Shown here piece after piece: positions 2,171 to 61,246 of a DNA stretch of 64,000 nt (the stretch's first letter is position 1; every line of letters starts with the position of its first letter). The position numbers were made by a program, and so were the translations under genes. The stretch lies in IMG/VR virus record IMGVR_UViG_2821091796_000001, positions 1 to 64,000 of that record; one strand, given 5' to 3'. The notes beneath the pieces were generated by a model. The model did not search any database, had not been told where the DNA came from, and worked only from the letters and a program-made list of their open reading frames with translations. The DNA is from a virus (taxonomy: Duplodnaviria; Heunggongvirae; Uroviricota; Caudoviricetes).

Positions 2171-2925
2171 TGGAGAGTGAAATGACCATTGTTCACAAAC
2201 ACACAAGCATCAACGGTCCAAAGGAGACCGTCACCGTGCGCCGGCATACGGATTTCAGCACGAATGATGGCACCGAGTTCTTCCAGGTTGAAGTGCCGGC
2301 CCGCAAGGGTCGCTACATGCACACCTCGAACGGTCGCAAATATTACCCACTCGATCCTCGGCCGGACGAAGTTGATCCGCAGGTTGTCGCTCATCACCTC
2401 GCAACGCGCTGCCGCTACAACGGCGCAACACAGCATCCGATATTCCGCACCAAAATCTTCTACTCGGTTGCAGAACATTCGGTCTATGTTTCGCTCTACC
2501 TGGAAAAGGAGCTCGGCCTGCCGCAATACGCACTCGAAGGACTCTTCCACGACGGCTCCGAAGCTTACAATGGCGATCTGATCCGGCCGCTCAAATATGA
2601 CGAGCTGTTCCGCGCTCCGTTCAAGATCGTCGAGGATTTGAATGAACATGCCGGCGCTGAGGCTCTCAATCTGATCTACCCGTATCCAAAAGAGATCAAA
2701 ATCGCTGACGAGGCAGTTACTGCGGCCGAAGTGATCCAGATTGTGCCCAAGGATCCCACTGAAGAGTGGGGAAGTGGAAAACTTCACGACGACACCCGAG
2801 TTGCTCCCTACGAGATTAAGATGATGGATCCGTGGGAAGCGAAGAACTTCTTTCTTGATCGCTATGAGGAGGTCATTGCAAAACGATCGAAATACCGAGA
2901 GCTACCCAAACGATTTACGCTATAA
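2170..2925 (+). CDS. HD-domain phosphohydrolase (YfbR-like 5'-deoxynucleotidase family)
   Basis: motifs AEHSVYV ... LFHDGSEAYNGD typical of HD-domain H..HD..E..GD metal site. Confidence 0.55.
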   Translation: MESEMTIVHKHTSINGPKETVTVRRHTDFSTNDGTEFFQVEVPARKGRYMHTSNGRKYYPLDPRPDEVDPQVVAHHLATRCRYNGATQHPIFRTKIFYSVAEHSVYVSLYLEKELGLPQYALEGLFHDGSEAYNGDLIRPLKYDELFRAPFKIVEDLNEHAGAEALNLIYPYPKEIKIADEAVTAAEVIQIVPKDPTEEWGSGKLHDDTRVAPYEIKMMDPWEAKNFFLDRYEEVIAKRSKYRELPKRFTL

Positions 2926-2943
2926 AGTAAATCAATGATGACT
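2924..2943. promoter_or_regulatory. palindromic motif copy (degenerate right arm), overlaps start codon of 2935 gene
   Basis: aaagtaaatcaATGatgact. Confidence 0.4.
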
Positions 2944-3192
2944 GATACTCACACAAATGATGCAACGGAATGGCCGAGCTTCGCACAGGAGCTCGGTCGC
3001 AAATCGCTCGAGACCGTCGAGACGTGGGTGAAACGCTACAACGCCAGAAAGATTACGGCGCGTGAGCTCTTCATCCTGGTCAGCGCGATCTACGACAGCG
3101 TTTCCGGACTGGTCCCGCGTGATGATCTTGACGTGATTGGCGCTGTCCACGAGGAACTGCGTCAAGCTTCGAAGAAGGCAAAAGCGAAATGA
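2935..3192 (+). CDS. hypothetical small protein
   Basis: 85 aa ORF; start codon lies inside a copy of the palindromic motif. Confidence 0.35.
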   Translation: MMTDTHTNDATEWPSFAQELGRKSLETVETWVKRYNARKITARELFILVSAIYDSVSGLVPRDDLDVIGAVHEELRQASKKAKAK

Positions 3193-3740
3193 CACCAGAG
3201 GAGAAGAACGCATGGATTTTATCCGCTATCAACGCTGGATACATCATTCCGCAAAAAGATGGCTCGATCTATCGGCGCAGCTATGCATCGAAGGACGGGA
3301 CGACAGTGGGTGGGGATCTGCGTCTGGTCAAATACACAGTGCAGAAAAAGTCCGGTCGCGTCTTCTTCAATATGACGTGGTTGGGCATCACGAAATCCGT
3401 TCTCGTGAACCGCGTTATCGCCCTCGCGTTTCTGCCAAACCCTCTCAATCTACCGCAGGTTAATCACATCGACGGCAATAAGGAGAATAACGCGCTCTAC
3501 CAGGCGGACGGCACTTATCAGCTCGAATGGTCCACTGGCCGCGATAACGAGAAGCACGCGCATAACACAGGCCTCAAGACCGGACGCGGTTCAGCGAACT
3601 CGAATGCCAAGCTGTCGAGTGCCGACGTTATAGCGATCCGCGAGTCCCACAAGAGCATTTCCGAAATCGCGGCAGAGCGAGGCGTTGCAAGATCAACGAT
3701 CGCCAACATTCTGGCGCGGAAAACCTGGATTCACTTATGA
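3189..3740 (+). CDS. HNH homing endonuclease
   Basis: NHIDGNKENN ... LEWSTGRDNEKHAHN HNH motif plus C-terminal HTH (STIANILARKTW). Confidence 0.7.
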   Translation: MTPEEKNAWILSAINAGYIIPQKDGSIYRRSYASKDGTTVGGDLRLVKYTVQKKSGRVFFNMTWLGITKSVLVNRVIALAFLPNPLNLPQVNHIDGNKENNALYQADGTYQLEWSTGRDNEKHAHNTGLKTGRGSANSNAKLSSADVIAIRESHKSISEIAAERGVARSTIANILARKTWIHL

Positions 3741-3955
3741 GCGAAGTAAGCTGGAAATCACCTACCCTGAACAAGGGCAAGAGCATGTTTCGCCAGAGCG
3801 GCGACATCACGATGACCGTCGATCACGTGGATCGCGTAATCGATCCGTATCTTGCAGGTGTCATGCACAAGGGGCGGATCGTGTATTCCGGTCTTCATGC
3901 CAGCCTTTCGGAAGCGCGAGCCGAATGTGAGCAAAAAGCTAAGGATCTTTCCTGA
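3737..3955 (+). CDS. hypothetical protein
   Basis: 72 aa ORF translationally coupled. Confidence 0.35.
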   Translation: MSEVSWKSPTLNKGKSMFRQSGDITMTVDHVDRVIDPYLAGVMHKGRIVYSGLHASLSEARAECEQKAKDLS

Positions 3956-5647: not shown

Positions 5648-5720
5648 GCAGAACACAATTCATCGGCGAGTCCCAGGCACGCCAATATCAATCAATTATG
5701 ATTTATCCCAAGGAGGGATC

Positions 5721-6306: not shown

Positions 6307-6328
6307 AGTCAATCATCATTGATTTACT
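6307..6328. promoter_or_regulatory. palindromic motif copy
   Basis: agtcaatcatcattgatttact, 17 nt before ATG 6346. Confidence 0.55.
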
Positions 6329-6345: not shown

Positions 6346-6741
6346 ATGCCGCGTTTTATCGTAGAGAAGCTGCAGGACGCATATGTGCGCTATCAGACCG
6401 TCGTTGATGCGGACAATGCACAGGACGCCAAAGACAAGGTCAAAGCCTGGACATTCGTCGGCCAATGGGTGCCAACCGGACATGTCGATGAGTATGACCA
6501 TTTCGATATCTCGGACAATGATCCGGAGAAGGTCGAGGACGATCACGTCATTGCAGAGGATGTTGCAATCAGCGTCTCCGAGCAGGCTCGTGACATCATC
6601 ATTGCCGCGCTTCGGCTATGGCAGCGGCTTGATACATTCAGCATTCCACACTCCATCGAGGAGCTCGCTCGTAACGGTCGCGCATCCTACTTATCAAATG
6701 AAGAAATTGATGAGTTGGTGGAGTCAGTCAATCATGATTGA
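6346..6741 (+). CDS. hypothetical protein
   Basis: 131 aa acidic ORF preceded by palindromic motif. Confidence 0.4.
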   Translation: MPRFIVEKLQDAYVRYQTVVDADNAQDAKDKVKAWTFVGQWVPTGHVDEYDHFDISDNDPEKVEDDHVIAEDVAISVSEQARDIIIAALRLWQRLDTFSIPHSIEELARNGRASYLSNEEIDELVESVNHD

Positions 6742-6982
6742 TCTTTACCACGTGCACGAACGCTACAGTGACGACGACAATTCGCTCCTCGTGCGCGCAT
6801 CTTCCCCGGAAGAGGCCGCGAAACTCTGGTGGGAATATTACGAGTATGAACCGGATCCGATGATGGGTGAGATCGCCATCTCGCTTTGCATGGCTGACCT
6901 CAACGTAATTGGCGCAATTCCTTGGAACCAGACTCTTGGCATGTTCGAGGTCGGCGCAAAGAAGATCGAGGACTGGCTCTGA
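6734..6982 (+). CDS. hypothetical protein
   Basis: 82 aa ORF from internal ATG of track ORF 6383, overlaps neighbours. Confidence 0.3.
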   Translation: MIDLYHVHERYSDDDNSLLVRASSPEEAAKLWWEYYEYEPDPMMGEIAISLCMADLNVIGAIPWNQTLGMFEVGAKKIEDWL

Positions 6983-9186: not shown

Positions 9187-9206
9187 AGTCAATCAATTTT
9201 GACTTA
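9187..9206. promoter_or_regulatory. palindromic motif copy
   Basis: agtcaatcaattttgactta, 23 nt before ATG 9230; TTGCTATAAC box just upstream (approx 9166-9176). Confidence 0.55.
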
Positions 9207-9229
9207 TCTTTAAGAGAGAGAGAACAAAT

Positions 9230-9583
9230 ATGAACCTTTCAAATATTGAACTCGGCACGAAGCTTGCTGGCGAACTCACGGTTTTACGTCGCCGCGCACG
9301 AAACATTCGCGACGGAGGTATGAGCATTAGCGTCGGTCGTGAAGGCTGGACGCCAAGCGAAACTGTTCGTGAACGCACTGCTCAACTGATGCTGGAAGAG
9401 CTCGCCGGCCAAGAACGCAAGATACTTGAAGAACTCAGCCATATCGGCATCTACGACGATGGCAAAAGCCGGCCGGCTGCAGTGGGCGAAAGCAAGTCCG
9501 CCGATGAGTGCGGATTCACCCACATCGGCGATGTTATCATTCCCGGCTTTGGCTCAGTGCCGGGCTTCGCATTCCGATCGTAG
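9230..9583 (+). CDS. hypothetical protein
   Basis: 117 aa ORF preceded by TTGCTATAAC promoter-like box and palindromic motif. Confidence 0.4.
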   Translation: MNLSNIELGTKLAGELTVLRRRARNIRDGGMSISVGREGWTPSETVRERTAQLMLEELAGQERKILEELSHIGIYDDGKSRPAAVGESKSADECGFTHIGDVIIPGFGSVPGFAFRS

Positions 9584-11962: not shown

Positions 11963-12190
11963 CTAAGCAGCCTTATCGGCTGAATGCGCGCTCTCATCAT
12001 CGCTGATTGGAAACGTATCTGCGCCAAAGTGCGTTAGGTCGCGTGAAACATCCTCAAGGTTCACGGACTTGTAGGCGTTAAAGTCGTCCAGATTGAAGCT
12101 AATTTTGCGCTCCGCGAAAAACTTCGCGGCGGCGTATTCAATCGCGGTTGTCAGTTGGCAGATGAGGACGGCATACTCAGCATGGCGCAT
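11963..12190 (-). CDS. hypothetical protein (divergently transcribed)
   Basis: 75 aa ORF on minus strand followed by AT-rich divergent promoter region 12191-12433 containing TATAAT. Confidence 0.4.
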   Translation of the reverse strand: MRHAEYAVLICQLTTAIEYAAAKFFAERKISFNLDDFNAYKSVNLEDVSRDLTHFGADTFPISDDESAHSADKAA

Positions 12191-12433
12191 CTTTTGTTAT
12201 CTTTCTTTGGCATGATACTCGGTGATTTCTAGGATTGAATTCCTATCATTAATCTCCCACAAGGGCAATATAGAGTCTGTGCAGGAACGGTCAATTATGA
12301 CCAAAGGGTAAAATATCCGGGTCAGGTGCGACATTCTGTCATCTAGTGGAATTTCGTGCAGCCCACCGAAATTTAGCTATAATGAATAGAAGAATGAACA
12401 ACATTAATAATTTAAATCAAGGAGTTAGTTTTT

Positions 12434-13392: not shown

Positions 13393-13430
13393 CTAAACCG
13401 CCCGACACCCGTTGTCGATTCCGTTAATAA

Positions 13431-13450
13431 GTAAGTCAATAATGATTGAC
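13431..13450. promoter_or_regulatory. palindromic motif copy
   Basis: gtaagtcaataatgattgac. Confidence 0.55.
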
Positions 13451-13463
13451 ATTGGAGAGCCGC

Positions 13464-14540: not shown

Positions 14541-14569
14541 GAATATTGATATCAATCATTATTGATTGA
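14541..14569. promoter_or_regulatory. palindromic motif copy (composite, two overlapping palindromes)
   Basis: gaatattgatatcaatcattattgattga. Confidence 0.55.
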
Positions 14570-14586
14570 ACACACGGAGAGGACAA

Positions 14587-15610: not shown

Positions 15611-15675
15611 TCTACCCAATCGCTCCCCTGCGCGCATCTGCTATATTGAATAATGTAAGCAGTTAACGAAAAATA

Positions 15676-15695
15676 GTAAGTCATAATTGATTGAC
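15676..15695. promoter_or_regulatory. palindromic motif copy upstream of tRNA cluster
   Basis: gtaagtcataattgattgac, ~170 nt before tRNA-Met. Confidence 0.5.
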
Positions 15696-15863
15696 ATTTG
15701 GTCCCAGAAATGCGAGGAGATAGACATGAAGTTGTAAGCGTAATTGTCCTGGTAACATCACAAAAGCGCCAACCGCAATAAGCGGGACTTTCTGAGGGAT
15801 GCCTATCTCTCGTGCCTGCTCCGGGGCCTAATCCGGAGCAACCAATTCGCCGAAAGGCAACAT

Positions 15864-15941
15864 TGCGGAGTAGAGAAGTGGTCTATCTCGTCTGGCTCAT
15901 AACCAGAAGATCGTCGGTTCGAATCCGACCTTTCGCAACCA
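15864..15941 (+). tRNA. tRNA-Met (anticodon CAT; could be Ile2/initiator type)
   Basis: hand-folded cloverleaf: acceptor tgcggag/tttcgca (2 GU pairs), D-arm gaga-agtggtcta-tctc, anticodon arm tctgg-ctCATaa-ccaga, T-arm gtcgg-ttcgaat-ccgac with one extra nt before acceptor, encoded CCA. Confidence 0.6.
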
Positions 15942-15978
15942 AATTGGCTGGCGCTGAACAGCGACGGCAACGAACTAC

Positions 15979-16054
15979 GGTGTGGTAGCGGAATGGTTAC
16001 GCAGCAGACTGCAACTCTGCATGGATGCTGGTTCGAGCCCAGCCCACACCTCCA
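15979..16054 (+). tRNA. tRNA-Cys (anticodon GCA)
   Basis: acceptor ggtgtgg/ccacacc, anticodon arm gcaga-ctGCAac-tctgc, T-arm gctgg-ttcgagc-ccagc, discriminator T, encoded CCA. Confidence 0.7.
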
Positions 16055-16631: not shown

Positions 16632-16648
16632 TTTCTTCGCGCAGTTTC

Positions 16649-16668
16649 GTCAATCAATGGTGATTGAC
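16649..16668. promoter_or_regulatory. palindromic motif copy
   Basis: gtcaatcaatggtgattgac. Confidence 0.55.
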
Positions 16669-16685
16669 TTCGAGGGGAACCACAA

Positions 16686-16829
16686 ATGCTCGATGACCTA
16701 GATACAGGATTCTTCCATACCAAGCCGCGCAAGAAGGAGCTTGGTGTCGTGACAGCGATTCTTGCCATCACCGTCGCGGCCGGCATCGTTGCGCTGCTAA
16801 CCGTCGTGGTCGACTTTATCCAGAACTAA
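16686..16829 (+). CDS. small hydrophobic membrane protein (47 aa, not in ORF track)
   Basis: MLDDLDTGFFHTKPRKKELGVVTAILAITVAAGIVALLTVVVDFIQN; palindromic motif 17 nt upstream. Confidence 0.35.
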   Translation: MLDDLDTGFFHTKPRKKELGVVTAILAITVAAGIVALLTVVVDFIQN

Positions 16830-16889
16830 CCAGCCGATCGCCTGCTCTGTTCGTGAGAAAAACGAGCATGTGCAACTCATGAGAGAAGC

Positions 16890-17174
16890 GTGATGAAACA
16901 ACAGTATAACGAAGCGGAAATAGCGGCGCGGTTCATCTGCGTAGATTGCTCGGTCGATACGTGTGAGAGCAATGAATACTACATGGTGCAGGATGCTGTT
17001 TGGAAAGAGGCAGGTATGACGCCGGATGGTGGAATGCTGTGCCTCGGCTGTCTCGAAGACAGGCTAAAACGCCAGCTCAAGCCGCATGACTTTCCCGACT
17101 ATCCTATCAATCACGGCGTATTCCCACGCTTCGATCGCATGATGAATCGGCTCGGCTATAGAAGAGCTGCATAA
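16890..17174 (+). CDS. hypothetical Cys-rich (zinc-finger-like) protein
   Basis: CVDC...CLGC pairs. Confidence 0.35.
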   Translation: MMKQQYNEAEIAARFICVDCSVDTCESNEYYMVQDAVWKEAGMTPDGGMLCLGCLEDRLKRQLKPHDFPDYPINHGVFPRFDRMMNRLGYRRAA

Positions 17175-17422
17175 TGAGTGAACGCTCTCGTCGATACGAG
17201 GTGCAGCTCTGCGCCATGAAAACCGATGCCGAGGGCTGCCTCACTTATTGCGACGCTACGGTCGAAACTCCGGAGCTCTATTGTGTCTACGTCAAGGAAT
17301 ACTCCGACAACGATGAGACTGAGATCCACGAGGACGAAGACTACGAATCCAAGATCGATGCGTTGGCTCGCGCTGACGAGCTGATCAAGAAATACCACAA
17401 CTGCCCGTTTGAGGAGTATTGA
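17174..17422 (+). CDS. acidic hypothetical protein
   Basis: 82 aa, ATGA overlap. Confidence 0.35.
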   Translation: MSERSRRYEVQLCAMKTDAEGCLTYCDATVETPELYCVYVKEYSDNDETEIHEDEDYESKIDALARADELIKKYHNCPFEEY

Positions 17423-17425
17423 TCC

Positions 17426-17650
17426 ATGTTTTCACTCTACGCCCTCGCCCGCTTCTTCAAGTGGCTCTTTCGCCCTGAGTTTCACCCTCGGTGTGCATAT
17501 ACGCGTGGCTACTATTCGGCGATTTCGCAGCAAGACTTTCACTCATATCCCAGTCCCAATCCGTTCATACCCGGATCTGATGAGTTCCGGGACTGGAATG
17601 CTGGGTTTGCCGACGGTCTTTGCGAAGTTCTGGACAGCACATCGTCGTGA
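17426..17650 (+). CDS. hypothetical protein
   Basis: 74 aa ORF. Confidence 0.3.
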   Translation: MFSLYALARFFKWLFRPEFHPRCAYTRGYYSAISQQDFHSYPSPNPFIPGSDEFRDWNAGFADGLCEVLDSTSS

Positions 17651-17804
17651 TTCGAACATGTGAGGTGTGGACGGAGGAATTGGGAACTCAGTTTTGCCTA
17701 TTCAAGACCGCAATTTAGACATTTTTGGACCGCGTTGCATTTGAGCAACAACGAGCCAATATCGCCTTAAATTCGATGATTTTGACCCTAATCCTTTTGG
17801 GTTA

Positions 17805-17820
17805 GCGTCAAATTTGATCC
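17805..17820. promoter_or_regulatory. palindromic motif copy (core only) upstream of OMP gene
   Basis: gcgtcaaatttgatcc; additional half-sites ttttgaccc, atcaaaattg nearby. Confidence 0.35.
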
Positions 17821-18000
17821 CTTTAACCATCAAAATTGGGCAAAAATGCCATAATTCGTCGCATGCGCGAACTTGGTAATGTCTTACGCTTGCGTCAAAG
17901 TTTGTTGCAGGTTTTCTGAGGTTCGTTACCTATAGAAATTCGTAAGGATTTGGCGAACACTATCGCCTAATCAGAGGTTTTCAGGTCTGGGGAGGACTTA

Positions 18001-19296
18001 ATGACAAAGACTATTTCCACAATTATCGGTGGGGCGCTTCTTCTAACCAGTGTCGCTACGGCAGCTCAGGCAGGTGGCCTTGAGCGCGGTGGTTACAACT
18101 GGGATCTCCTCTTCAGTGAAGAGCGTTTTGCGACCGAGGGCGGCGTGATCTATGTAATGCCTGATCGCAAGATCAAGAATGCCAAGGATACCTCCACAAA
18201 TCCGCGCCTTGGTCAGGACAATGAGAATTACAAAAAGTCCACAGCCAGTGAAACACCAGACTACTCGGTTTATAAGTTTGGTGCCAAGGTTGGCATCACC
18301 CCGGATTTGGACTGCCTTGGCTCCTACAGCCAGCCATGGGGCGTTCACACGAAGCCAGGTGCCAATTGGGCTGGTGACAATTCGAACATTGAAACGAAGA
18401 TCAGCTCCGACGATTGGGGCCTGACGTGCTCTTACAAATTCCAAGTTACTGAAAAAGGTTCGTTCCGAGTAATCGGCGGCGTTTCCTATCAGGAAGTCGA
18501 GGGTTTCAAGACACGCATGGTCAATGGCGGCATTCCTCTTTCACCTTACGGTAAAGCGGGTTTTGACGGCACCGGTCGTCTGGAACTTAAAGGCGACGGT
18601 GTAGGTTGGCGCATCGGTGGTGCATACGAAATTCCAGAAATCGCGCTCCGTGCCAGCGTCATGTATAATGCGGCCGTGGATCTCGGAGAAGTCGGCGGAA
18701 CTCTCGACCTGAGAGAAATTCCTGGTGCGTTGGCAACTCCTTCAAACCCACTTCCTGGCCGGATTACCGACGTTTATGGCCACGCGAAAATGCCACAGTC
18801 CGTTGAAATCAAACTTCAGAGCGGTTTTGCTCCAGGTTGGCTTGCTTACGGTTCGGTTAAGTGGGTCGACTGGAGTGTGCTGGACGTTATCGCGTTTTGC
18901 CCTGTTGCAACCAAGCCCAGAGGCGGTTGTTCTGCGAGTTCTTCAAATCGTGCAACATCGCTTGACCTGATGTTCCAGGATGGCTGGACGGTAACCGCAG
19001 GCGTCGGTCACAAATTCAACGACCATTGGAGCGGTCAGCTTCAAGTTAGCTGGGACAAGGGCACCACAACGGGTTTGACCACACAGACAGACACCTATCT
19101 GCTCTCGTCCGGTATCGCGTATTCACCAAACAAGAATGTTGAAATTCGTCTTGGCGGCGCAATCGGTTGGCTCTCGTCAGGATCCTACGGCCCAACAAAG
19201 TGCACTGGCAACCAGCCATGCGGCACAGATGTGTCCTATGACTTCGGTGATGACCTCGTGACCGCCGTATCATTGTCTGGCAAGATGAAGTTCTAA
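18001..19296 (+). CDS. FadL/OMPP1/TodX-family outer-membrane beta-barrel protein
   Basis: signal peptide ending AAQA, Gly/aromatic-rich beta-strand pattern, C-terminal ...SLSGKMKF ending in Phe; SD ggggagga. Confidence 0.6.
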   Translation: MTKTISTIIGGALLLTSVATAAQAGGLERGGYNWDLLFSEERFATEGGVIYVMPDRKIKNAKDTSTNPRLGQDNENYKKSTASETPDYSVYKFGAKVGITPDLDCLGSYSQPWGVHTKPGANWAGDNSNIETKISSDDWGLTCSYKFQVTEKGSFRVIGGVSYQEVEGFKTRMVNGGIPLSPYGKAGFDGTGRLELKGDGVGWRIGGAYEIPEIALRASVMYNAAVDLGEVGGTLDLREIPGALATPSNPLPGRITDVYGHAKMPQSVEIKLQSGFAPGWLAYGSVKWVDWSVLDVIAFCPVATKPRGGCSASSSNRATSLDLMFQDGWTVTAGVGHKFNDHWSGQLQVSWDKGTTTGLTTQTDTYLLSSGIAYSPNKNVEIRLGGAIGWLSSGSYGPTKCTGNQPCGTDVSYDFGDDLVTAVSLSGKMKF

Positions 19297-19319
19297 TTCA
19301 TCTATCGACTGCTCAAACA

Positions 19320-19352
19320 GAAAAGCCCGGTATCACTACCGGGCTTTTCTGT
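19320..19352 (+). terminator. rho-independent terminator
   Basis: aaaagcccggt-atcact-accgggctttt ctgtattt. Confidence 0.7.
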
Positions 19353-19372
19353 ATTTATCCTCTGTTCCACGC

Positions 19373-19849: not shown

Positions 19850-19900
19850 TATCTACTCGGCCCAGAATTGTATACGCCTCGCCGTGTCGATGGTGCTGAG

Positions 19901-42885: not shown

Positions 42886-43190
42886 ACTTTGGTCAAGCAA
42901 TCGAAATTGTAAAGCGCGGCGGGAAGGTCGCTCGTGAAGGCTGGAATGGAAAGCGCATGTTCGTCTTCCTACATCCCGGTTCTGCCCCGCGCGCAACCCA
43001 AGTCAAGCCGGTAAGTCCGGATTTGGATCTCATCGCCGGCATTGACAAGAACCATTTCGAAACCGGCGCCGAGGGCTCAACAATTCGCCTTCCATCTCTT
43101 GGGCTGCGGACAGTGGACGGCTCAATGCTGATCGGTTGGCTCGCCTCCCAGACGGATGTTCTGGCCGAAGACTGGCAAGAGGTTCGCTAA
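42882..43190 (+). CDS. DUF2829 family protein (Tad2-like, Thoeris anti-defence candidate)
   Basis: MNFGQAIEIVKRGGKVAREGWNGKRMFVFL opening typical of DUF2829; ~100 aa. Confidence 0.45.
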   Translation: MNFGQAIEIVKRGGKVAREGWNGKRMFVFLHPGSAPRATQVKPVSPDLDLIAGIDKNHFETGAEGSTIRLPSLGLRTVDGSMLIGWLASQTDVLAEDWQEVR

Positions 43191-43816: not shown

Positions 43817-44725
43817 ATGGAAACGTCATACAGAGTCGCCGGTGAGCTTTGTGACTTCAGCGTATGTGAGACGCGCATAAGTCGAGCGGTCGCGCCCAGG
43901 GCGCGCTTCTCGCTGATAGACGACATGTTTGTCGAGCGCGGGACGATCGCAGACTGGAATCTCTTGCACGATCTGCATTACAAGGCCGAAAAACTGCCGC
44001 TGGGTCCGCGCTTCTATCGTCTCGATCTGCACGGAGAGACTATTGGCGTTCTTGTGACTGGCACTCCGAAGGGAATGCTGCGCGAAAGACATATTATCTT
44101 CCCGAAGATCAAGCCGACCGGACAGGATACCAAGCTCACCAATACCAACCGCTATCGCTATATCAACGCCAACTTTCGGGTGATCTCGCGCTTTGTAGTC
44201 GATACAATGTATCGCGGCATCGGCGCCGGCTATCGCATGATGAACTTGGTCTCGCGCATGGAGGGAAACACCTTTACAGAGATCCAGTCATCGATGTCGA
44301 AATTCAATGTTTTCGGTCAGAAGGCAGGCTTCCGCTTTGCGCCGCCCCAGAACGCCAACAAGTTCGAAGCCGGCATGAAATTCTTTCGCTCCAATTTCGT
44401 GAGCAACCCCCAAGACTTTGAAGCCATTGTAAACGAGATCCTGACGCAACCTGAAGCTCAACGTGACAAGACCGTGCAACTTTGCCGCGAGTTCTATCAG
44501 AAGAACTCAGCAATGGAAAATACGGGCGCAGCCAGAGAAAAGGCGAACGAGCGTGTTGCTGCGATGGATGTGCGATCGACCATCAAAGCGATCCAACAGG
44601 TTTCTCTCGCATCGCCGCTCTATGGCGTATGGAAATGCCCGGATCCGAAGGGATCTGTGCCCGATCGTTTGCCCTTAAGCGCATTTGACTGGCAGGGCGT
44701 CAATGAAAGGCTGCGCCTGCCATGA
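43817..44725 (+). CDS. hypothetical protein (possible GNAT-like segment)
   Basis: 302 aa; RFVVDTMYRGIGAGYRMM resembles acetyl-CoA binding motif A; weak. Confidence 0.35.
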   Translation: METSYRVAGELCDFSVCETRISRAVAPRARFSLIDDMFVERGTIADWNLLHDLHYKAEKLPLGPRFYRLDLHGETIGVLVTGTPKGMLRERHIIFPKIKPTGQDTKLTNTNRYRYINANFRVISRFVVDTMYRGIGAGYRMMNLVSRMEGNTFTEIQSSMSKFNVFGQKAGFRFAPPQNANKFEAGMKFFRSNFVSNPQDFEAIVNEILTQPEAQRDKTVQLCREFYQKNSAMENTGAAREKANERVAAMDVRSTIKAIQQVSLASPLYGVWKCPDPKGSVPDRLPLSAFDWQGVNERLRLP

Positions 44726-44967
44726 TGCTGATGCGGACGGACAAGCAGAAAGCGATCATGGAGATCATTTTCAGGCACGTGAATGCCGGCAAGTTTCTCA
44801 GCGTGCGCGAACTTCACGCGCTACTGCCATATTCCTGCGCATATGGTTCATTCCGGATGAGTTTGAAGCAACTTGAAATACACAGGATCATCGAGAAGGA
44901 GAAAGCCGGACGATCTGCTTTGGTCAAGCCTACAAAACTAGGTTACGACTGGTTCAGATCCGGATGA
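44722..44967 (+). CDS. winged-helix DNA-binding protein
   Basis: 81 aa MarR/PadR-like pattern. Confidence 0.35.
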   Translation: MMLMRTDKQKAIMEIIFRHVNAGKFLSVRELHALLPYSCAYGSFRMSLKQLEIHRIIEKEKAGRSALVKPTKLGYDWFRSG

Positions 44968-45063
44968 GCTCTTCCCTCGCCTCGTTTCGTCTATACGTAT
45001 ATGTATTCTAATAGATAATAATACACATAGACGAAGCATGGACGGGAAGAACCTTTTCATTTA

Positions 45064-45085
45064 AAGTAAATCAACATTGATTGAT
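45064..45085. promoter_or_regulatory. palindromic motif copy before terminase small subunit
   Basis: aagtaaatcaacattgattgat, 10 nt before ATG 45096. Confidence 0.55.
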
Positions 45086-45095
45086 AATTGAGACC

Positions 45096-45758
45096 ATGAG
45101 CGAAGAAGCACTCTCCGGAACTGAGCTAGGCGAAGACGCTGAAGAAGCAGGTAAGAAGTTCCGCAAACTAACACCTGCGGAACGTGCGGAAATCCGCGAG
45201 CTATATGAATTGGGTAAGGCTCGAATGACCGAACTTGCCGATAAATACGGCTGTTCACGTCAGACGCTCTCAAGATGGTTCCGGGACGAGAAGATTAAAT
45301 GGGGCTCGCGCGCCGAAGAAGTGAAGGAGGCGGCCAAGGCGGCCATCACTGCCTCGACCACTGCAACCGTAACGTCGATCGCGGAGCGGTTCCAGGATCA
45401 TCGGGCGGATTGGATCGAGGAAACGCGCGTCAATTCCTACAAAGCGTTGCGTATGGCCGAGCTCCTGGCAAAAAAAACAGTCCAGGAAGCAATGAAAGCG
45501 GCCAAGCCGCTTGCCACGATCGACGAAGAGATGAAGGCGATCCACCGCTATCAAAAAGTGCTCTTGGAGAATGCTGACGCACGTTTGCGCATCCTAAATG
45601 CAGACGACGTTGTTGCCGAAGACGATCTTCCGTCGATCCAGATTGACGATCTGACGGCTGAGGATCTAGTCCGCTTCCACCGCGAGAATGGCGTGGATGA
45701 TGAAGAGGAGATCGACGAGATCCTCAAGAATTTCGATGAGCCGGTGGTCATCGAATAA
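45096..45758 (+). CDS. terminase small subunit (putative)
   Basis: HTH near N-terminus (RMTELADKYGCSRQTLSRWF), acidic C-terminus, immediately upstream of TerL. Confidence 0.5.
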   Translation: MSEEALSGTELGEDAEEAGKKFRKLTPAERAEIRELYELGKARMTELADKYGCSRQTLSRWFRDEKIKWGSRAEEVKEAAKAAITASTTATVTSIAERFQDHRADWIEETRVNSYKALRMAELLAKKTVQEAMKAAKPLATIDEEMKAIHRYQKVLLENADARLRILNADDVVAEDDLPSIQIDDLTAEDLVRFHRENGVDDEEEIDEILKNFDEPVVIE

Positions 45759-47017: not shown

Positions 47018-47024
47018 GCTTGAT

Positions 47025-47046
47025 AGTAAATCAATATTGATTTACT
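47025..47046. promoter_or_regulatory. palindromic motif copy (perfect) before portal gene
   Basis: agtaaatcaatattgatttact. Confidence 0.6.
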
Positions 47047-47083
47047 ATTTTGGCAATAGTTCAATGAAGGTTCTGTGGCAGCG

Positions 47084-48643
47084 ATGAGTATTTCGAAAAA
47101 TGATGACCCTTTGCGCACGTTCTATGAGCGCAGGCATCCCGAATACCATCGCCTTGCCCCCGTATGGCGCTTTCTACAAGCGACCTATGATGGCGGCCGC
47201 GCTTGGTTTGCCGACAATATCTTCAAGTTCCACAAAGAAGGTCAGCAGGAGTTTAACGATCGCCTCAATCGCGCTTACCGCTTCAATCACACACGCGAGA
47301 CCGTCGATCTTGTGCAGAAGTATCTGTTCAAGGCTCCCGTATCACGCAGCGAAGACGCCCCACAGGTCGTAAAGGACTTCTGGGAAAACTCGACGCTTTC
47401 AAACCTGAATATCGACTCTCTAATGCGCATGTCCACTGCCTCCAACTCAGTGAAGGGCAGGGCGGCCATTTTCGTGGACAACAATATGCGAGAAGGCGGC
47501 ATGACAATCGCCGAGGCGCGCGCGGCCGGTATTCGCATCTATGCCTATCTCATCACGGCAACCGATCTGCTTGATTATGCCTGGGATGAAGAGGGTGATG
47601 GTGGACTGCTTTGGGTGAAGGTGCGCGAGTTCGTGCGCGACGACAAGGATCCGATTGCTTCGTGTGGTGATATCATCGAACGCGTTCGGCTCTGGACGCG
47701 CAAGGAATGGATCCTTTTTGAGGAGGTTGAGTCCGAAGTCGATCCTCTCAAACGCTCCAAGAAGAAGCAGAAAGTCATTCGTGAGATCGACCGCGGCGAG
47801 CACAATCTCGACGTGGTGCCTTGCGTCTTCGTTGATCACAATGTTGGCGATGCACCTTACGCAGTTCCGGGTCTCATCGATGATATCGGATATCTTGACC
47901 GCGCCGTTGCCAATTACCTTTCCAATCTTGATGCGATCATCCAGGACCAGACATTCTCCCAACTCGCCATGCCGGCTCAAGCAGTCATGCCAGGCGATGA
48001 CGAATACGATGCCGTTCTATCGATGGGCACCAAGCGCGTCTTCCTGTTCGACGGCGCAGGCGGCAAACCTGAATACCTTTCTCCGGATCCAAAGCAGGCA
48101 CAGATCATCCTGACGGTGATCGAAAAGATCATCAATGAAATCTACCACACTGTCGGGCTCGCCGGCGAGCGCACCAAGCAGGACAACGCGGTCGGCATCG
48201 ACAACTCGTCCGGTGTCGCTAAGGCTTACGATTTCGAGCGGGTGAACTCGCTACTCCTGTCCAAAGCGCAAAGCTGCGAGAACGCAGAAAACAAGCTTGT
48301 TCAGCTGGTCTGCAAGTGGGCGAACATCGCAATCCCAACAGACAAGCTCGTTCAGTATCCACTGACCTTCGACGTGATGCGCTTGGCTGACGAACTGTCG
48401 GTCGGCGAAGCGCTCGGCAAGCTGGCTGCTCCGAATGAAGTGCGCCGCGAGCAGATGCGTCAGATCGTCGACAAGCTTTTTCCTCGCCTCAAGAAAGACC
48501 TTCGCGAAGCAATGGAGAAAGACATCAAAACGTGGCTGGAGGGCGAAGATCTCGTTCTCAATCCACCATCAAGTTTCGGAAGCAAACCTGCAACGTCCCG
48601 ATCCCGTCAAGGCTCGGTCACAGCAAAAACGCCAACGAAATAA
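47084..48643 (+). CDS. portal protein
   Basis: ~520 aa gene directly after terminase, followed by scaffold and capsid. Confidence 0.6.
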   Translation: MSISKNDDPLRTFYERRHPEYHRLAPVWRFLQATYDGGRAWFADNIFKFHKEGQQEFNDRLNRAYRFNHTRETVDLVQKYLFKAPVSRSEDAPQVVKDFWENSTLSNLNIDSLMRMSTASNSVKGRAAIFVDNNMREGGMTIAEARAAGIRIYAYLITATDLLDYAWDEEGDGGLLWVKVREFVRDDKDPIASCGDIIERVRLWTRKEWILFEEVESEVDPLKRSKKKQKVIREIDRGEHNLDVVPCVFVDHNVGDAPYAVPGLIDDIGYLDRAVANYLSNLDAIIQDQTFSQLAMPAQAVMPGDDEYDAVLSMGTKRVFLFDGAGGKPEYLSPDPKQAQIILTVIEKIINEIYHTVGLAGERTKQDNAVGIDNSSGVAKAYDFERVNSLLLSKAQSCENAENKLVQLVCKWANIAIPTDKLVQYPLTFDVMRLADELSVGEALGKLAAPNEVRREQMRQIVDKLFPRLKKDLREAMEKDIKTWLEGEDLVLNPPSSFGSKPATSRSRQGSVTAKTPTK

Positions 48644-49676: not shown

Positions 49677-49694
49677 AGTCAATGATTTTTGACT
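49677..49694. promoter_or_regulatory. palindromic motif copy (first of two before capsid gene)
   Basis: agtcaatgatttttgact. Confidence 0.5.
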
Positions 49695-49733
49695 TTTCTC
49701 CTTGTGAGCGTGGACTCGGTGAGTTACCATAAT

Positions 49734-49755
49734 AGTCAGTCAATATTGACTTACT
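49734..49755. promoter_or_regulatory. palindromic motif copy (second before capsid gene)
   Basis: agtcagtcaatattgacttact. Confidence 0.55.
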
Positions 49756-50684: not shown

Positions 50685-50692
50685 GCTTGAAT

Positions 50693-50713
50693 GTAAATCA
50701 ACATTGATTTACT
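50693..50713. promoter_or_regulatory. palindromic motif copy
   Basis: gtaaatcaacattgatttact. Confidence 0.55.
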
Positions 50714-50719
50714 ATCTGA

Positions 50720-50750
50720 GGGCGGGATTATTCCCGCCCTTTGTTTATTT
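50720..50750 (+). terminator. rho-independent terminator after capsid gene
   Basis: gggcggg-attatt-cccgccc then TTTGTTTATTT. Confidence 0.7.
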
Positions 50751-50761
50751 GTGAGGAACCG

Positions 50762-53871: not shown

Positions 53872-54299
53872 TTAGGATGCGCTCGACGGGCGGCAGCCAG
53901 GTAGTTGTGGAACTGCGCAATATGGGTCAGCGGGTTGTTGAGAACGCTCGCAAGACCATGCACGCCTCTGCTGGGCGTATCGTCCAGGAGGCCAAACTCA
54001 ATACGCCCGTTGATACGCACGATCTGGAACAATCCATCCGAATTGAGAAGTCCTATGGCACCGCCGGCCGACTGCAAATCGACATCGTTGCCGGCGGAGG
54101 ACACATCGACGCTTATGCGGCTGAGGTGCATGAGAACTACAACCCCGAGCACGCAGGCGAGGGCACCAAGGAAAAGATGAGACAGAACCCCGGACGGCTC
54201 ATCGGAGAGAAGTATCTCGACCGCGCCGTCGAGGACGAGGAAGGCAAGCTCAACGCCAGAATAATTGGCGCAATTTCAAAGGTGACGACGAAGCTATGA
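53868..54299 (+). CDS. HK97 gp10-like tail-component protein
   Basis: ...ELRNMGQRVVENARKTMHASAGRIVQEAKLNTPVDTHDLEQSIRIEKS pattern of gp10 family. Confidence 0.5.
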   Translation: MIRMRSTGGSQVVVELRNMGQRVVENARKTMHASAGRIVQEAKLNTPVDTHDLEQSIRIEKSYGTAGRLQIDIVAGGGHIDAYAAEVHENYNPEHAGEGTKEKMRQNPGRLIGEKYLDRAVEDEEGKLNARIIGAISKVTTKL

Positions 54300-54706
54300 T
54301 TTGGGACATTCTTATTGCGAAGATCGAAGCGGCCGGCCTTGCAGCGGCCGGCAACGACATGTTCATCAATGACTTTCCAGCCGAAGTGGATACCGGTGTC
54401 ATGTTGAAATCGCCACTTGCTGGAATTGCTATCGATCCCAACCTGCCAGGCTACTATACGCCAAACCTTCAGATTATTGTTCGCCACAAGGATCCCGTTG
54501 AGGGTGAGAAGCTCGCGGCTAAGCTTAACCACATTCTCTATGTTGAAGCACCAGAGAGATATGAGCAGACTGCCGAGCGCGGTGCGGTTCAGATCAACAT
54601 CTTCCGGGCCCGGAGTTTGCCGATCCGGTATCCACGTCAAGAGGGCGGATCGATCGAATGGTCGCTCAACTACAGCACATCCTTCACCATTCAGGCTCGC
54701 TCATAA
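54296..54706 (+). CDS. tail completion/terminator candidate
   Basis: position before major tail gene. Confidence 0.35.
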   Translation: MIWDILIAKIEAAGLAAAGNDMFINDFPAEVDTGVMLKSPLAGIAIDPNLPGYYTPNLQIIVRHKDPVEGEKLAAKLNHILYVEAPERYEQTAERGAVQINIFRARSLPIRYPRQEGGSIEWSLNYSTSFTIQARS

Positions 54707-54726
54707 TAAATCAATATTGATTTACT
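54706..54726. promoter_or_regulatory. palindromic motif copy before major tail gene
   Basis: ataaatcaatattgatttact. Confidence 0.55.
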
Positions 54727-54790
54727 TTTTGCCGTCAGGTAAACTACTGGTCAAGTATGTCCTTTCCGCCTCTCAAGGAGTAAATCTATT

Positions 54791-55315
54791 ATGGCTGGTC
54801 CAACATCTAGCACTGAAAACGTCAAGCTTGGCGTCTGCACCGTCCTCTTTAATGCAGAGGATCTTGGTTTTACCAAGGGCGGCGTGGAAGTCGAAGTGAC
54901 GACGGATACGCACGAAGTCACCGTCGATCAGTTTGGCGATACGCCGATCGATGAACTTGTAACTGGCCGTAAGGTCACTGTTAAGGTTCCGCTCGCCGAA
55001 ACGACGCTCGACAACCTTGTCCGCATCATGCCTGGCGCAACCCTGATCGTCGATGGCACCGATCCGAAAAAGCGCCAGGTCGTTGTTGATACGGGTGTTT
55101 CCATTTCGCTTTTGTCTATTGCCAAGAAGCTCGTTCTGCGTCCGAAAGGCACAACTGGCGAAGAAGATTTCACGATTTTCAAGGCAATGACCGCCGGCGC
55201 GATTTCGTTCGCCTATCAGTCCGATACTGAACGAGTCTTCAACGTCTCCTTCAAGGGCTACGCTGACGCTACGGGAAAGCTTTTTGCCCTTGGTGATACT
55301 ACTGCAGCTGCTTAA
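54791..55315 (+). CDS. major tail protein
   Basis: 174 aa, follows palindromic motif, precedes G/T chaperones and tape measure. Confidence 0.6.
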   Translation: MAGPTSSTENVKLGVCTVLFNAEDLGFTKGGVEVEVTTDTHEVTVDQFGDTPIDELVTGRKVTVKVPLAETTLDNLVRIMPGATLIVDGTDPKKRQVVVDTGVSISLLSIAKKLVLRPKGTTGEEDFTIFKAMTAGAISFAYQSDTERVFNVSFKGYADATGKLFALGDTTAAA

Positions 55316-55336
55316 TCACTTGATTTCAAGCGCAAA

Positions 55337-55356
55337 GTAAATCAATATTGACTGAC
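55337..55356. promoter_or_regulatory. palindromic motif copy before G-like chaperone gene
   Basis: gtaaatcaatattgactgac plus downstream ctgaca...tgtcag hairpin. Confidence 0.5.
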
Positions 55357-55398
55357 ATTCTTCCGAGTGTCAGTCAATTTCATTTTCAGGGAAACACT

Positions 55399-55850: not shown

Positions 55851-56078
55851 GTGGATCGGCTCGCCGCAGAAGACGACTTGAGAATGATCAACCTGCTCGG
55901 CTCTGTTACCTCCGCCGAGTCTTACGGAAAAGCGGTAGATCAACTTCACAAGTCGATGGGTGAAATCTGGGTGATGGCCCCTAAAGCCCAAGTATTTGAT
56001 GCTGATGCGCCAGATGCGGAGTTCGACAGAACAGCATTCAAGGCGCTGAAGGCGAAAGTCCACAAAGCAAAAAGGTAA
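55851..56078 (+). CDS. gpT-like ORF in -1 frame relative to gpG-like gene (possible frameshift product)
   Basis: -1 frame stays open from ~55716, overlapping the 3' end of the G-like gene. Confidence 0.35.
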   Translation: MDRLAAEDDLRMINLLGSVTSAESYGKAVDQLHKSMGEIWVMAPKAQVFDADAPDAEFDRTAFKALKAKVHKAKR

Positions 56079-56095
56079 ATCAATAATGATTTACT
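56075..56095. promoter_or_regulatory. palindromic motif copy before tape measure gene
   Basis: gtaaatcaataatgatttact. Confidence 0.55.
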
Positions 56096-60834: not shown

Positions 60835-61184
60835 CCCTTCCAATCTTTGAACCAAGTGTGCCGCCTTCTAGCGGCACACGTCACAAGCCCGAGATCAAGC
60901 TTCTCGAAGCCGAGTTCGGCGACGGCTATACGCAATCGGCGCGGCGCGGAATCAATCACCTGCGCCGCACTCTTGCTCTATCTTGGGATAAACTTCTTCC
61001 ATGGCAGGAAGCTGAGATCATGGGCTTTCTCACAGAGCGAGGCGGCGATCGCCTGTTTTACTTCACACCAACCGGTGAGCGAAAAGCTTTGAAGTGGACA
61101 TGCCAGGAATTCGATAGTGCGCATAACAACGACGGCTTTCAGGTGTCAGCGACATTCAAGCAGAGCTTTAATCTGGAGAACTAA
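60831..61184 (+). CDS. minor tail protein M (lambda gpM-like)
   Basis: FGDGYTQSARRGIN ... FYFTPTGERKALKWTCQEF parallels lambda gpM FGDGYSQRA...WTPP...KVTCAKW. Confidence 0.75.
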   Translation: MTLPIFEPSVPPSSGTRHKPEIKLLEAEFGDGYTQSARRGINHLRRTLALSWDKLLPWQEAEIMGFLTERGGDRLFYFTPTGERKALKWTCQEFDSAHNNDGFQVSATFKQSFNLEN

Positions 61185-61224
61185 TTCGCTTTTTCGTCTT
61201 TTCGTTCCATACGGAGTCTGTTAA

Positions 61225-61246
61225 AGTAAATCATCATTGATTTACT
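61225..61246. promoter_or_regulatory. palindromic motif copy before gpL-like gene
   Basis: agtaaatcatcattgatttact. Confidence 0.55.

Follow-up and report, generated by a model that had tools for sequence, protein, structure and literature searches.

The 64,000-nucleotide stretch of DNA analysed here, hereafter the window, is positions 1 to 64,000 of the IMG/VR virus record IMGVR_UViG_2821091796_000001 (Caudoviricetes), and scattered among its genes are many copies of a single palindrome, which is the subject of this report. Judged by sequence, the window is part of a phage-plasmid of the RHEph10/pLM21S1 type, about 115 kilobases (kb) long and related to SSU5. In its portal protein (47084-48643) the window shares 65% identity with Rhizobium phage RHEph10 (115 kb) and 51% with Salmonella phage SSU5, and its gene order is collinear with RHEph10 from the genes annotated there as RIIA and RIIB through the tail genes. 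RHEph10 and the Sinorhizobium plasmid-prophage pLM21S1 have been grouped together as plasmid-like prophages equipped with RepC and Par functions (PMC4447125; PMC7969092). The window encodes ParA with a ParG-like ribbon-helix-helix (RHH) partner (33162-34074), NadV and NadM, a helicase, two proteins with a ParB_N domain (40278-40982 and 41154-41816) and a Tad2-like protein. No close nucleotide relative was found in collections of phage, plasmid or species-representative genomes, which returned only a weak match to a Shinella plasmid, and a search of genome contigs with the portal protein gave no match.

The palindrome is 22 base pairs (bp) long, AGTAAATCAAT|ATTGATTTACT (consensus AGTAAATCAATATTGATTTACT), and has 23 strong copies in the window, which score 24.7-36.2 bits against a symmetrised position weight matrix; the matrix converges on 25 sites, the remaining two being weak (49677, 18.5 bits; 54779, 13.5 bits). 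In 100 dinucleotide-type shuffles the top score was 19.7 bits and 0.9 matches of at least 10 bits were expected, and the core pattern TCAAT-N0-4-ATTGA had ten exact matches in the window vs. 0.57 expected. The initial annotation of this DNA had claimed at least 22 copies, and that claim is upheld, as no shuffle produced a site as strong as any of the 23. Nor is the palindrome equally frequent in coding DNA: a rough gene model assigns 83% of the window to coding and 17% to non-coding DNA, and 20 of the 23 strong copies are mostly non-coding (binomial P = 5e-13), the other three (642, 6722 and 2926) lying in coding sequence or overlapping a start codon. When searched for with the full consensus, mismatches allowed, every copy fits a single ungapped 22-bp register. 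The spacer of zero to four bases proposed earlier is therefore only apparent, because the centre is degenerate and the arms are self-similar at 4 nucleotides (nt) (GTMA-RTCA), which gives rise to secondary matrix matches at +/-4 nt. Positions T2, A4, T6, C7 and A8 are invariant, as are T13, G14, A15, T17 and A19 in the mirrored half; position 3 (A/C), position 5 (A/G) and the four central bases vary, and the symmetry reaches beyond the 22 bp, an A at -2 being mirrored by a T at +23 (26 bp with the A/T flanks).

Most copies stop 9-48 nt short of the next start codon, in agreement with the position shortly upstream of genes that was described at the outset. The further description "upstream of nearly every transcription unit" goes too far: of 54 intergenic gaps of at least 25 nt, 21 hold a copy, and there is none in the 13-kb cargo block between 16,670 and 29,810. 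The palindrome marks phage-type modules, not nearly all transcription units. Orphan half-sites are rare in the window (four were found) and the DNA that flanks the copies is not repeated. We consider that the palindrome is very probably a protein-binding site on duplex DNA that is under selection, and we give a probability of roughly 0.6 to a fuller reading of its sequence and context, in which the copies would serve as dispersed operators and roadblocks of one global repressor encoded by the element.

The palindrome in related elements

With the window matrix we found 35 copies in RHEph10 (at least 16 bits), and the same motif is present in two 116-kb IMG/VR contigs, L004 and L006, with 6-7 copies in 11 kb of each. 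Fourteen window copies lie at slots orthologous to RHEph10 copies, and the proteins that flank them are only 35-77% identical. These slots include the 3' end of open reading frame (ORF) 3-698, the gaps before the terS-like, portal, tape-measure and minor-tail genes, the gaps after the capsid gene and after gene 54791-55315, and the divergent gap between the helicase and ParB genes. Two copies are kept inside coding sequence in both the window and RHEph10. The HD-domain gene lies on opposite strands in the two genomes and has a copy upstream in both (32540; RHEph10 79004). Similarly, the tandem pair before the capsid gene (49677 and 49734 in the window), to which the initial annotation had drawn attention, recurs with a distance of 57-62 bp in L004 (6988 and 6927) and L006 (1153 and 1091).

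In more diverged elements the slots persist and the sequence of the site shifts. Contigs L015, L016 and L021 (about 55-60% portal identity) have no sites of the window matrix and carry TGTAAGTAAG-NN-CTTACTTACA in the same 22-bp register and at the same slots. SSU5 has 30 matches to TAAGTAAG-NN-CTTACTTA (at most four mismatches) vs. 1.6 expected in shuffles, of which we took 24 as distinct sites; their positions again include the gap between terL and the portal gene, the DNA behind the capsid gene, where a terminator comes next, and the gaps ahead of tail genes, and there is no site in 84.2-99.8 kb, where the SSU5 record annotates repressor-like genes. RHEph10 is intermediate between the variants, with C or A at position 7. 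The drift of the site along the phylogeny is gradual and therefore fits co-evolution with a protein encoded by the element. These comparisons indicate that the palindrome is under purifying selection and evolves with its lineage.

Two syntenic relatives of 109-112 kb lack it. Pseudomonas phage nickie, examined over its whole genome, has no recurrent palindrome and no match to ParA, and Stenotrophomonas phage BUCTxx99 has no recurrent palindrome, and no annotated ParA, in the 41 kb around its portal gene. We infer that both phages are lytic, their records being silent on the matter. In the gap between terL and the portal gene of nickie (9424-9482) a promoter-like TTGCAC-N17-TACCAT is retained, inside a different inverted repeat, CACTATGGT-N12-ACCATAGTG. 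Beyond these relatives, a search for the exact 20-mer across 185,579 species-representative genomes gave three isolated, unrelated single matches only. In the Rhizobiales genome of Microvirga arabica (NZ_JAFBID010000006.1, 3833-3870) a single 38-bp perfect palindrome, AGATGTAAAGTAAATCAATATTGATTTACTTTACATCT, contains the exact window consensus, and no homologue of the window proteins lies within 8 kb of it. We found no description of the motif in the searchable papers on RHEph10, pLM21S1, SSU5, Cyrano and pHCM2.

Placement among genes, promoters and terminators

The first copy in the window (642-663, 28.6 bits) lies inside the 3' end of ORF 3-698, 31 nt before the start of 695-2170. That ORF is 37.6% identical to RHEph10 DNA 67087-67632, within the gene annotated RIIA, and the orthologous copy (RHEph10 67618) is likewise upstream of the gene annotated RIIB. 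Copy 2926-2947 (27.6 bits; ortholog RHEph10 69991) abuts the stop codon of 2182-2925 and overlaps the ATG at 2935. Copy 5686-5707 (26.7 bits; ortholog RHEph10 73364) ends 13 nt before the ATG at 5721, with the Shine-Dalgarno (SD) sequence AAGGAGGG directly after it, and copy 6307-6328 (31.9 bits) ends 17 nt before the ATG at 6346. The weakest of the strong copies, 6722-6743 (24.7 bits), sits where genes 6346-6741 and 6734-6982 overlap, with the ATG at 6734 in its centre. Copies 9187-9208 (29.2 bits) and 13430-13451 (31.0 bits; ortholog RHEph10 78347) precede the ATG codons at 9230 and 13464 by 21 and 12 nt. At 14550-14571 (24.9 bits) a copy that stops 15 nt short of the ATG at 14587 shares bases with a second palindrome, ATTGATATCAAT, arranged tail to tail with it and beginning at 14541, and the composite overlapping site reported earlier corresponds to 14541-14571. 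A promoter-like TTGAAT-N17-AAAAAT ends at the left edge of copy 15675-15696 (29.2 bits), which is 167 nt upstream of the genes for tRNA-Met and tRNA-Cys (15864-16054), and copy 16648-16669 (25.2 bits; 16 nt before the ATG at 16686) is the last before the 13-kb motif-free cargo region.

Beyond the cargo region, copy 29811-29832 (33.8 bits) is at the 3' end of 29828-30406 (- strand) and 38 nt upstream of 29593-29772 (- strand), and copy 32540-32561 (27.5 bits) lies 59 nt from the HD-domain gene (31950-32480, - strand), in the divergent gap upstream of it. Copy 38328-38349 (33.7 bits; ortholog RHEph10 104324) is 14 nt upstream of a gene of deoxynucleoside monophosphate kinase type (37753-38313, - strand). 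Between the helicase gene (- strand) and the first ParB_N gene (+ strand) lies copy 40235-40256 (32.6 bits; feature 40205-40256, + strand), and copy 41812-41833 (27.4 bits) overlaps the stop codon of 41154-41816 in a 29-nt gap, 12 nt before the ATG at 41846. Among the packaging and head genes, copy 45065-45086 (30.6 bits; feature 45060-45088, + strand), 9 nt before the ATG of the terS-like gene, is framed in a promoter scan by a weak TTTAAA-N17-GATAAT and has orthologs at RHEph10 110700, L006 5826 and L016 3833. Copy 47025-47046 (36.2 bits; feature 47020-47048, + strand) is a perfect match to the consensus and fills the spacer of TTGATA-N17-TACTAT upstream of the portal gene. The tandem pair consists of the weak copy 49677-49698 upstream and the copy 49734-49755 (32.4 bits), 29 nt before the ATG (49785) of the major capsid gene. 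Copy 50692-50713 (32.3 bits; feature 50687-50751, + strand) comes 7 nt past the end of the capsid gene, inside TTGAAT-N17-TACTAT, and only 4 nt separate it from a strong intrinsic terminator (50718-50741 and a T-run; 50718-50751 overall).

In the tail region, copy 54705-54726 (35.1 bits; orthologs RHEph10 6620/6668) overlaps the stop codon of 54296-54706, 64 nt before gene 54791-55315, which is the ortholog of a RHEph10 gene annotated "protein with Ig domain" and probably encodes the major tail protein. The half-site-like match 54779-54800, whose score is within the shuffle range, overlaps the ATG at 54791 and is probably not functional. Downstream of the same gene is copy 55336-55357 (32.4 bits; feature 55336-55388, + strand), the right arm of which is used as the 5' arm of a terminator-like hairpin (55347-55378, followed by a T-run). 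Copy 56074-56095 (32.9 bits; ortholog RHEph10 8346) fills a gap of 31 nt ahead of the tape-measure gene (ATG 56110), and copy 61225-61246 (32.6 bits; ortholog RHEph10 13519) ends 10 nt before the ATG (61257) of a minor tail gene.

How do these positions relate to promoters, which we predicted from sequence and conservation? No -10 or -35 partner stands at a fixed distance (the lack of a fixed -10 had been noted at first), and no -35/-10 hexamer is conserved over all window copies. The histogram of hexamer registers is close to chance plus the motif's own fixed T and A positions, and only the TTG at offset -5 and syntenic conservation hold up. That TTG occurs in 9 of 82 copies (three genomes), against a mean of 1.8 at other offsets and 0 of 82 at the mirrored position (Poisson P ~1e-4). 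Two arrangements recur. In one, between terL and the portal gene, the palindrome fills the 17-nt spacer of (C/G)TTGA(C/T)-N17-TAC(T/C/A)AT, which is in register in five sequences of alphaproteobacterial type, namely the window (47020-47048), RHEph10, L004, L006 and L016, with the variant TTGCAG/TATCAT in L021. The spacer-type copies (47025 and 50692; RHEph10 112697, 2747 and 13519; L016 5806; SSU5 3543 and 55694) are all at least 26 nt from the start codon. In the other arrangement, between the helicase and ParB genes, 0-3 nt separate the palindrome from the end of a promoter-like TTGCCT-N18-TATGAT, in the window (40205-40234) and RHEph10 alike, with a variant shifted by one base in L006 and GTGCCT-N17-TATTAT at this slot in SSU5; the copies that would lie over the transcription start in this way are 40235, RHEph10 106195, L006 10937 and SSU5 99797. 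In this subset of copies, then, the site falls between -35 and +20 of a predicted promoter, as expected of an operator, and the position of the -10 relative to the motif differs (+18 or -3/-6). Given what is established about promoter architecture, a repressor would sit at the spacer and over-start positions, and an activator of the classical kind would not.

About half of the copies have an SD sequence that starts within 0-5 nt of the end of the motif, which leaves no place for a transcription start downstream of it. Copies of this kind, 8-21 nt before an ATG, have a -10-like nAnnnT at offsets -8 to -6 (12 upstream vs. 2 at the mirrored offsets). The palindrome also keeps company with terminators. 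After the capsid gene the order of palindrome then terminator is found in the window, RHEph10 (469), L016 (9475), SSU5 (5470), L004 and L006, and the terminator that shares the right palindrome arm at window 55336 has its like at RHEph10 7571. Copies 56074 and 41812 fill very short gaps between genes that are normally co-transcribed.

The nature of the site and its possible binding protein

What kind of molecule would read such a site, and on which nucleic acid? A role in RNA, as a hairpin between cistrons or in a 5' untranslated region (a processing site, weak terminator, stabiliser or translational operator near the ribosome-binding site), would suit a palindrome that lies within transcribed intergenic DNA, often adjoins an SD sequence, folds in its perfect copies to about -10 kcal/mol between flanking runs of A and T, and in some cases has a terminator next to it. 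The arms, though, do not covary: pair 3/18 is anti-correlated (complementarity odds ratio 0.30), the other variable mirrored pairs are mostly at about 1 or below with none significantly above 1, and G·U pairs are no commoner than A·C mismatches (13 vs. 14 in the window; 22 vs. 29 in RHEph10). The predicted hairpins average -5.1 kcal/mol on either strand, so that sense and antisense are alike, and 7 of 23 are weaker than -3 kcal/mol; the invariant positions are specific to sequence and not to pairing, and, over the genomes compared, the start codon may lie anywhere from about 0 to 130 nt away. Lack of covariation, the G·U count and weak hairpins on both strands therefore argue for a site in duplex DNA, and we regard an RNA element as highly improbable. 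In the window copies the left and right halves do not differ significantly in composition at any mirrored position, a pattern characteristic of a symmetric protein that reads two independent half-sites on the duplex. Could that protein instead be part of the transcription machinery, the palindrome being a phage-specific promoter or activator box at which host RNA polymerase with a phage sigma factor or activator drives every phage unit? Copies precede most lytic genes, RHEph10 encodes a protein with a sigma-70 region 2, and the last four bases of the motif with the next two often read TAnnnT (TACTAT, TACCAT, TACAAT, TATCAT), with a TTG 17 nt upstream in register in a subset. Against this, the palindrome is fully symmetric and has no polarity relative to gene direction, it stands in at least two registers relative to -35/-10 hexamers with no conserved partner, and in the roughly half of copies with SD 0-5 nt and ATG 8-21 nt after the motif, a start following a right-end -10 would remove the ribosome-binding site. 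We rejected a sigma-70-type promoter element on these grounds, and the "non-canonical promoter class" suggested by the initial annotation fares no better, several copies standing directly before an intrinsic terminator. Its comparison of the TTGAC of the right arm to a -35 fails on geometry, as the matching -10, 17 nt further along, would coincide with the start codon or lie past it. Furthermore, SSU5 has the motif and yet no sigma factor is annotated in the SSU5 stretches retrieved, nor did any RHEph10 ORF at the sigma-factor gene (39826-40461) match SSU5. Classical class I and II activators do not act from sites centred near -20 or +10, where the palindrome would be. A promoter or activator box seems to us unlikely.

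Sites for genome organisation or partition, of the parS/OB/sopC kind and bound by a ParB- or ParG-like protein with only a secondary effect on transcription, would be natural in a phage-plasmid that encodes ParA, a ParG-like RHH protein and two ParB_N proteins; ParA is present in motif-bearing genomes and not in motif-less nickie, and N15 and RK2 are precedents for dispersed partition-protein sites that also regulate transcription. The two ParB_N proteins, however, are kept in motif-less nickie and BUCTxx99 and show the N-terminal domain only in Pfam, with no helix-turn-helix (HTH) detected; the ParG-like protein more plausibly binds ACGA boxes with an 8-nt period directly upstream of parA; the ParA partners of the window and SSU5 are not detectably homologous, though the motif core is shared; and 40-50 sites placed precisely at gene starts exceed the needs of partition. 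We think a centromere-like function quite unlikely. Binding by a transcription factor or nucleoid protein of the host, put to use by the phage, would account for a GTAAG...CTTAC core common to elements from very different hosts, and for our having found no phage-encoded binder. It sits badly with a centre that differs between lineages plausibly sharing host orders (TCAAT|ATTGA in the window and RHEph10 vs. TAAG-NN-CTTA in L016), with the near absence of the exact 20-mer from the species-representative genomes noted above, and with syntenic Pseudomonas and Stenotrophomonas relatives that lack the motif. Compared by eye with consensus sequences, the palindrome does not seem to fit FNR/FixK, Fur, TyrR, IHF, CtrA, LexA or RcsAB. 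Its half-sites, ATCAA..TTGAT, appear in the opposite order to those of the FNR/FixK (TTGAT-N4-ATCAA) and Fur sites; the TyrR site, TGTAAA-N6-TTTACA, has a spacing of N6 vs. N10 in the palindrome; and the RcsAB site (TAAG-N6-CTTA) resembles sub-registers of the SSU5 variant only. Borrowing of a host factor is, in our estimation, very unlikely. Lastly, a short, multi-copy palindrome confined to intergenic DNA recalls selfish repeats of the repetitive extragenic palindrome (REP) or miniature inverted-repeat transposable element (MITE) type, with no regulatory role. Such repeats would hardly occupy orthologous slots as far away as L016 and SSU5 despite 35-77% protein identity, with two copies kept inside coding sequence in the window and RHEph10 and flanking DNA that is not repeated, and no REP-associated tyrosine transposase (RAYT) was found among the proteins screened, which cover part of the window. 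We give this explanation almost no weight.

The symmetric composition, independent arms, retention of orthologous slots and drift by lineage all favour the binding site of a dimeric, element-wide regulator, as the initial annotation had proposed. In the repressor model that we prefer, the 22-bp palindrome (26 bp with flanks) would be bound as duplex DNA by a symmetric regulator, a dimer or tetramer, that the element itself encodes, and such operators would be spread over the lytic modules for nucleotide metabolism, tRNAs, packaging, head and tail. At a spacer-type site the bound protein would exclude or trap RNA polymerase, and where the site begins 0-3 nt after the -10 it would cover the transcription start, again excluding or trapping polymerase. 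Promoter-less copies between co-transcribed genes would probably be elongation roadblocks ("stoperators"). A single repressor would in this manner silence about 40-50 lytic transcription units during maintenance as a plasmid-prophage, and cargo and maintenance genes without a site would stay expressed. That binding represses, that it has a role in lysogeny and that the binder is encoded by the element are what we infer. The distribution of the palindrome fits a lytic-gene regulon, in that it is absent from the 13-kb cargo block, from SSU5 84.2-99.8 kb, from nickie and from the BUCTxx99 stretch.

A number of observations weigh against the repressor model. About half of the copies have no recognisable promoter nearby, a generic promoter scan was not enriched over shuffles, and part of the preference for two promoter registers follows from where the motif itself has T and A. 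Several slots have the order stop codon, palindrome, terminator, next gene, an arrangement that suits a promoter-operator poorly, unless transcripts begin within the stem of the terminator. The GTAAG core is kept from alpha- to gammaproteobacterial hosts, which is unusually deep for a repressor-operator pair. Phages of the RHEph10 type were isolated as plaque-formers, and pLM21S1 could not be induced (PMC4447125). Finally, no binder emerged among the recognisable DNA-binding proteins of the window, every one of which has a counterpart in motif-less nickie: the two ParB_N proteins and the terS-like HTH protein have blast homologues in that phage, and where the window has the gene for an 81-amino-acid winged-helix-like protein, nickie also has a gene.

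The last two of these were among the candidates named in the initial annotation. The product of 44722-44967 (81 amino acids) has a weak winged-helix match only and, as just described, a positional counterpart in nickie; a comparison of its recognition helix across the motif variants merely mirrors phylogeny. The product of 45096-45758 looks like an HTH protein of the small-terminase type, and that of 695-2170, the third candidate, shares 42% identity and its place in the gene order with the RHEph10 gene annotated as RIIB lysis inhibitor. Other candidates were rejected in turn. The protein with the highest identity to RHEph10 (37753-38313, 77%) matches phrog_139, annotated as deoxynucleoside monophosphate kinase. 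The gene 3189-3740, judged by eye from its sequence (VNHIDGNKENN, with a C-terminal HTH) to be of HNH homing-endonuclease type, is 59% identical to RHEph10 gp156. The DnaA_C-like HTH protein (19373-19849) has no RHEph10 homologue, the ParG-like RHH protein (33162-33434) probably binds ACGA repeats instead, and 29828-30406 has no similarity to any family, PDB entry or SSU5_120. The repressors annotated in SSU5 have no homologues in the window or RHEph10, and no homologue of C1, Lxc or Coi was detected in the window. A profile of genes present in RHEph10 and SSU5 and not in nickie, which is blind to small, fast-evolving proteins, returned only ParA, the HD hydrolase, the kinase and tail proteins; the hydrolase (31950-32480, - strand) is of the HD_4 type and is common to RHEph10 and SSU5 and absent from nickie. 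Outside the window, the densest cluster of sites in RHEph10 (35043, 35666 and 35955; 35043-35976, 0.9 kb) surrounds gp041 and gp042, next to repC, and may be the regulatory centre of the element. The product of gp041 (35193-35594), a 133-amino-acid protein with a weak match to Xre-type HTH domains, is our best guess for the regulator.

A second dispersed repeat in the window consists of three to four tandem 8-nt units, R-ACGA-AAR, with most arrays ending a few nucleotides before an ATG. Arrays are present at 23537-23575, 28600-28625, 29018-29045, 32924-32955 and, on the - strand upstream of parA, 34097-34135, with others at 11079, 36849, 38408 and 61192, and they lie mostly within the palindrome-free cargo and maintenance regions. 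Single 7-mers of the ACGA type are not enriched over shuffles. ParG of plasmid TP228 reportedly reads four-base boxes at an 8-bp period, and in the window the ParG-like RHH gene (33162-33434, - strand) adjoins that for ParA. This pattern suggests two separate regulons, in which maintenance and cargo genes would be governed through ACGA arrays and lytic genes through the palindrome; alternatively, the purine-rich repeats could be extended ribosome-binding sites.

The remaining features of the window can be described briefly. The 13-kb palindrome-free block (16670-29810), which has low coding density and genes on both strands, looks like a variable cargo region of a phage-plasmid. It encodes a FadL/TodX-like outer-membrane protein (18001-19296), the DnaA_C-like HTH protein (19373-19849, - strand), an SRAP protein (24800-25489, - strand) and a Rap1a-like immunity protein (25758-26117, - strand). 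NadV and NadM, for NAD salvage, are encoded at 34192-36719 (- strand), and the same functions are reported for pLM21S1; the Tad2-like (anti-Thoeris) protein is at 42882-43190. Inside a plus-strand block lies a lone minus-strand ORF, 11963-12190, for an acidic protein of 75 amino acids without a family match. Its promoter, TTGACC-N16-TATATT (12294-12267), is the best sigma-70-like one nearby, and a terminator of its own lies at 11953-11935. The ORF is conserved in part, though unannotated, in RHEph10 and faces a divergent promoter-like site (12207-12235), with no palindrome nearby.

Relation to known systems

That a repressor may act through dispersed operators is already known as a principle from P1, the mycobacteriophages and φC31, and immunity in the Cluster A mycobacteriophages is covered by PMC6550527. 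What is notable here is how deeply the site is conserved, across elements of alpha- and gammaproteobacterial hosts, together with the preservation of its promoter-operator architectures and its absence from two syntenic, apparently lytic relatives. Phage-plasmids of the SSU5 type are common in Salmonella, E. coli, Klebsiella and Yersinia, some with record names that include OXA48 or KPC, and are found here in Rhizobiales as well; the motif may bear on how they decide between maintenance as a plasmid and lysis. If a conserved site stands on most lytic units, it would provide an immediate map of the regulon, and the 26-mer AAAGTAAATCAATATTGATTTACTTT (SSU5 form ATAAGTAAGTACTTACTTAT) could be used as bait for the master regulator. 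The variants TCAAT|ATTGA and TAAG-NN-CTTA might serve as a sequence-based predictor of immunity groups. The motif may also separate temperate members from lytic ones such as nickie and BUCTxx99, which would be relevant to the choice of phages for therapy or biocontrol. It is tempting to go further and imagine an ancient master switch of the SSU5 supergroup of phage-plasmids, alpha- to gammaproteobacterial, that through some 40-50 sites would control initiation, elongation and, by the pairing of a site with a terminator right after it or with a terminator hairpin that uses its right arm, termination (as in roadblock or antitermination systems), with a protein that might double as the centromere-binder in partition; we hold this to be a doubtful extension.

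We conclude that the palindrome probably represents a genome-wide operator set of a phage-plasmid master regulator, one that is like the known dispersed-operator systems and is a member of none of them by sequence. The C1 operators of P1 are likewise those of a plasmid prophage, in which a master repressor acts at 17 or more scattered operators over lytic and accessory promoters; they are asymmetric 17-mers, ATTGCTCTAATAAATTT, some of them paired, whereas the palindrome has more copies, many without a recognisable promoter. In RK2 (KorB OB) and N15 (sopC), too, scattered palindromic sites of one plasmid-encoded protein lie at promoters and tie maintenance to global repression. RK2 has 12 such sites and N15 has 4, bound by HTH proteins of the ParB family, whereas the ParB_N proteins of the window have no detected HTH and persist in motif-less relatives. 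We rejected an assignment to ParB/KorB-type parS/OB sites, which co-occur with an HTH ParB protein. The Cluster A stoperators, read by repressors of the L5/Bxb1 gp71 type, share with the palindrome their tens of dispersed copies (23 in 64 kb here, 35 in RHEph10 and 24 distinct in SSU5), their position both at promoters and in short intergenic gaps within units, and a site that drifts between sub-lineages, which would define immunity groups, in a system that silences the lytic genes of the prophage. They are asymmetric, 13-14 bp long and oriented with transcription, where the palindrome is symmetric and 22-26 bp long, and they belong to unrelated hosts and an unrelated phage lineage. Closest in form are the conserved inverted repeats (CIRs) of φC31, bound by isoforms of the c repressor, a conserved palindrome at about 18 or more intergenic loci near promoters and terminators; they are 17 bp long, GC-rich and those of an integrating actinophage, with no relationship to our palindrome in sequence or protein.

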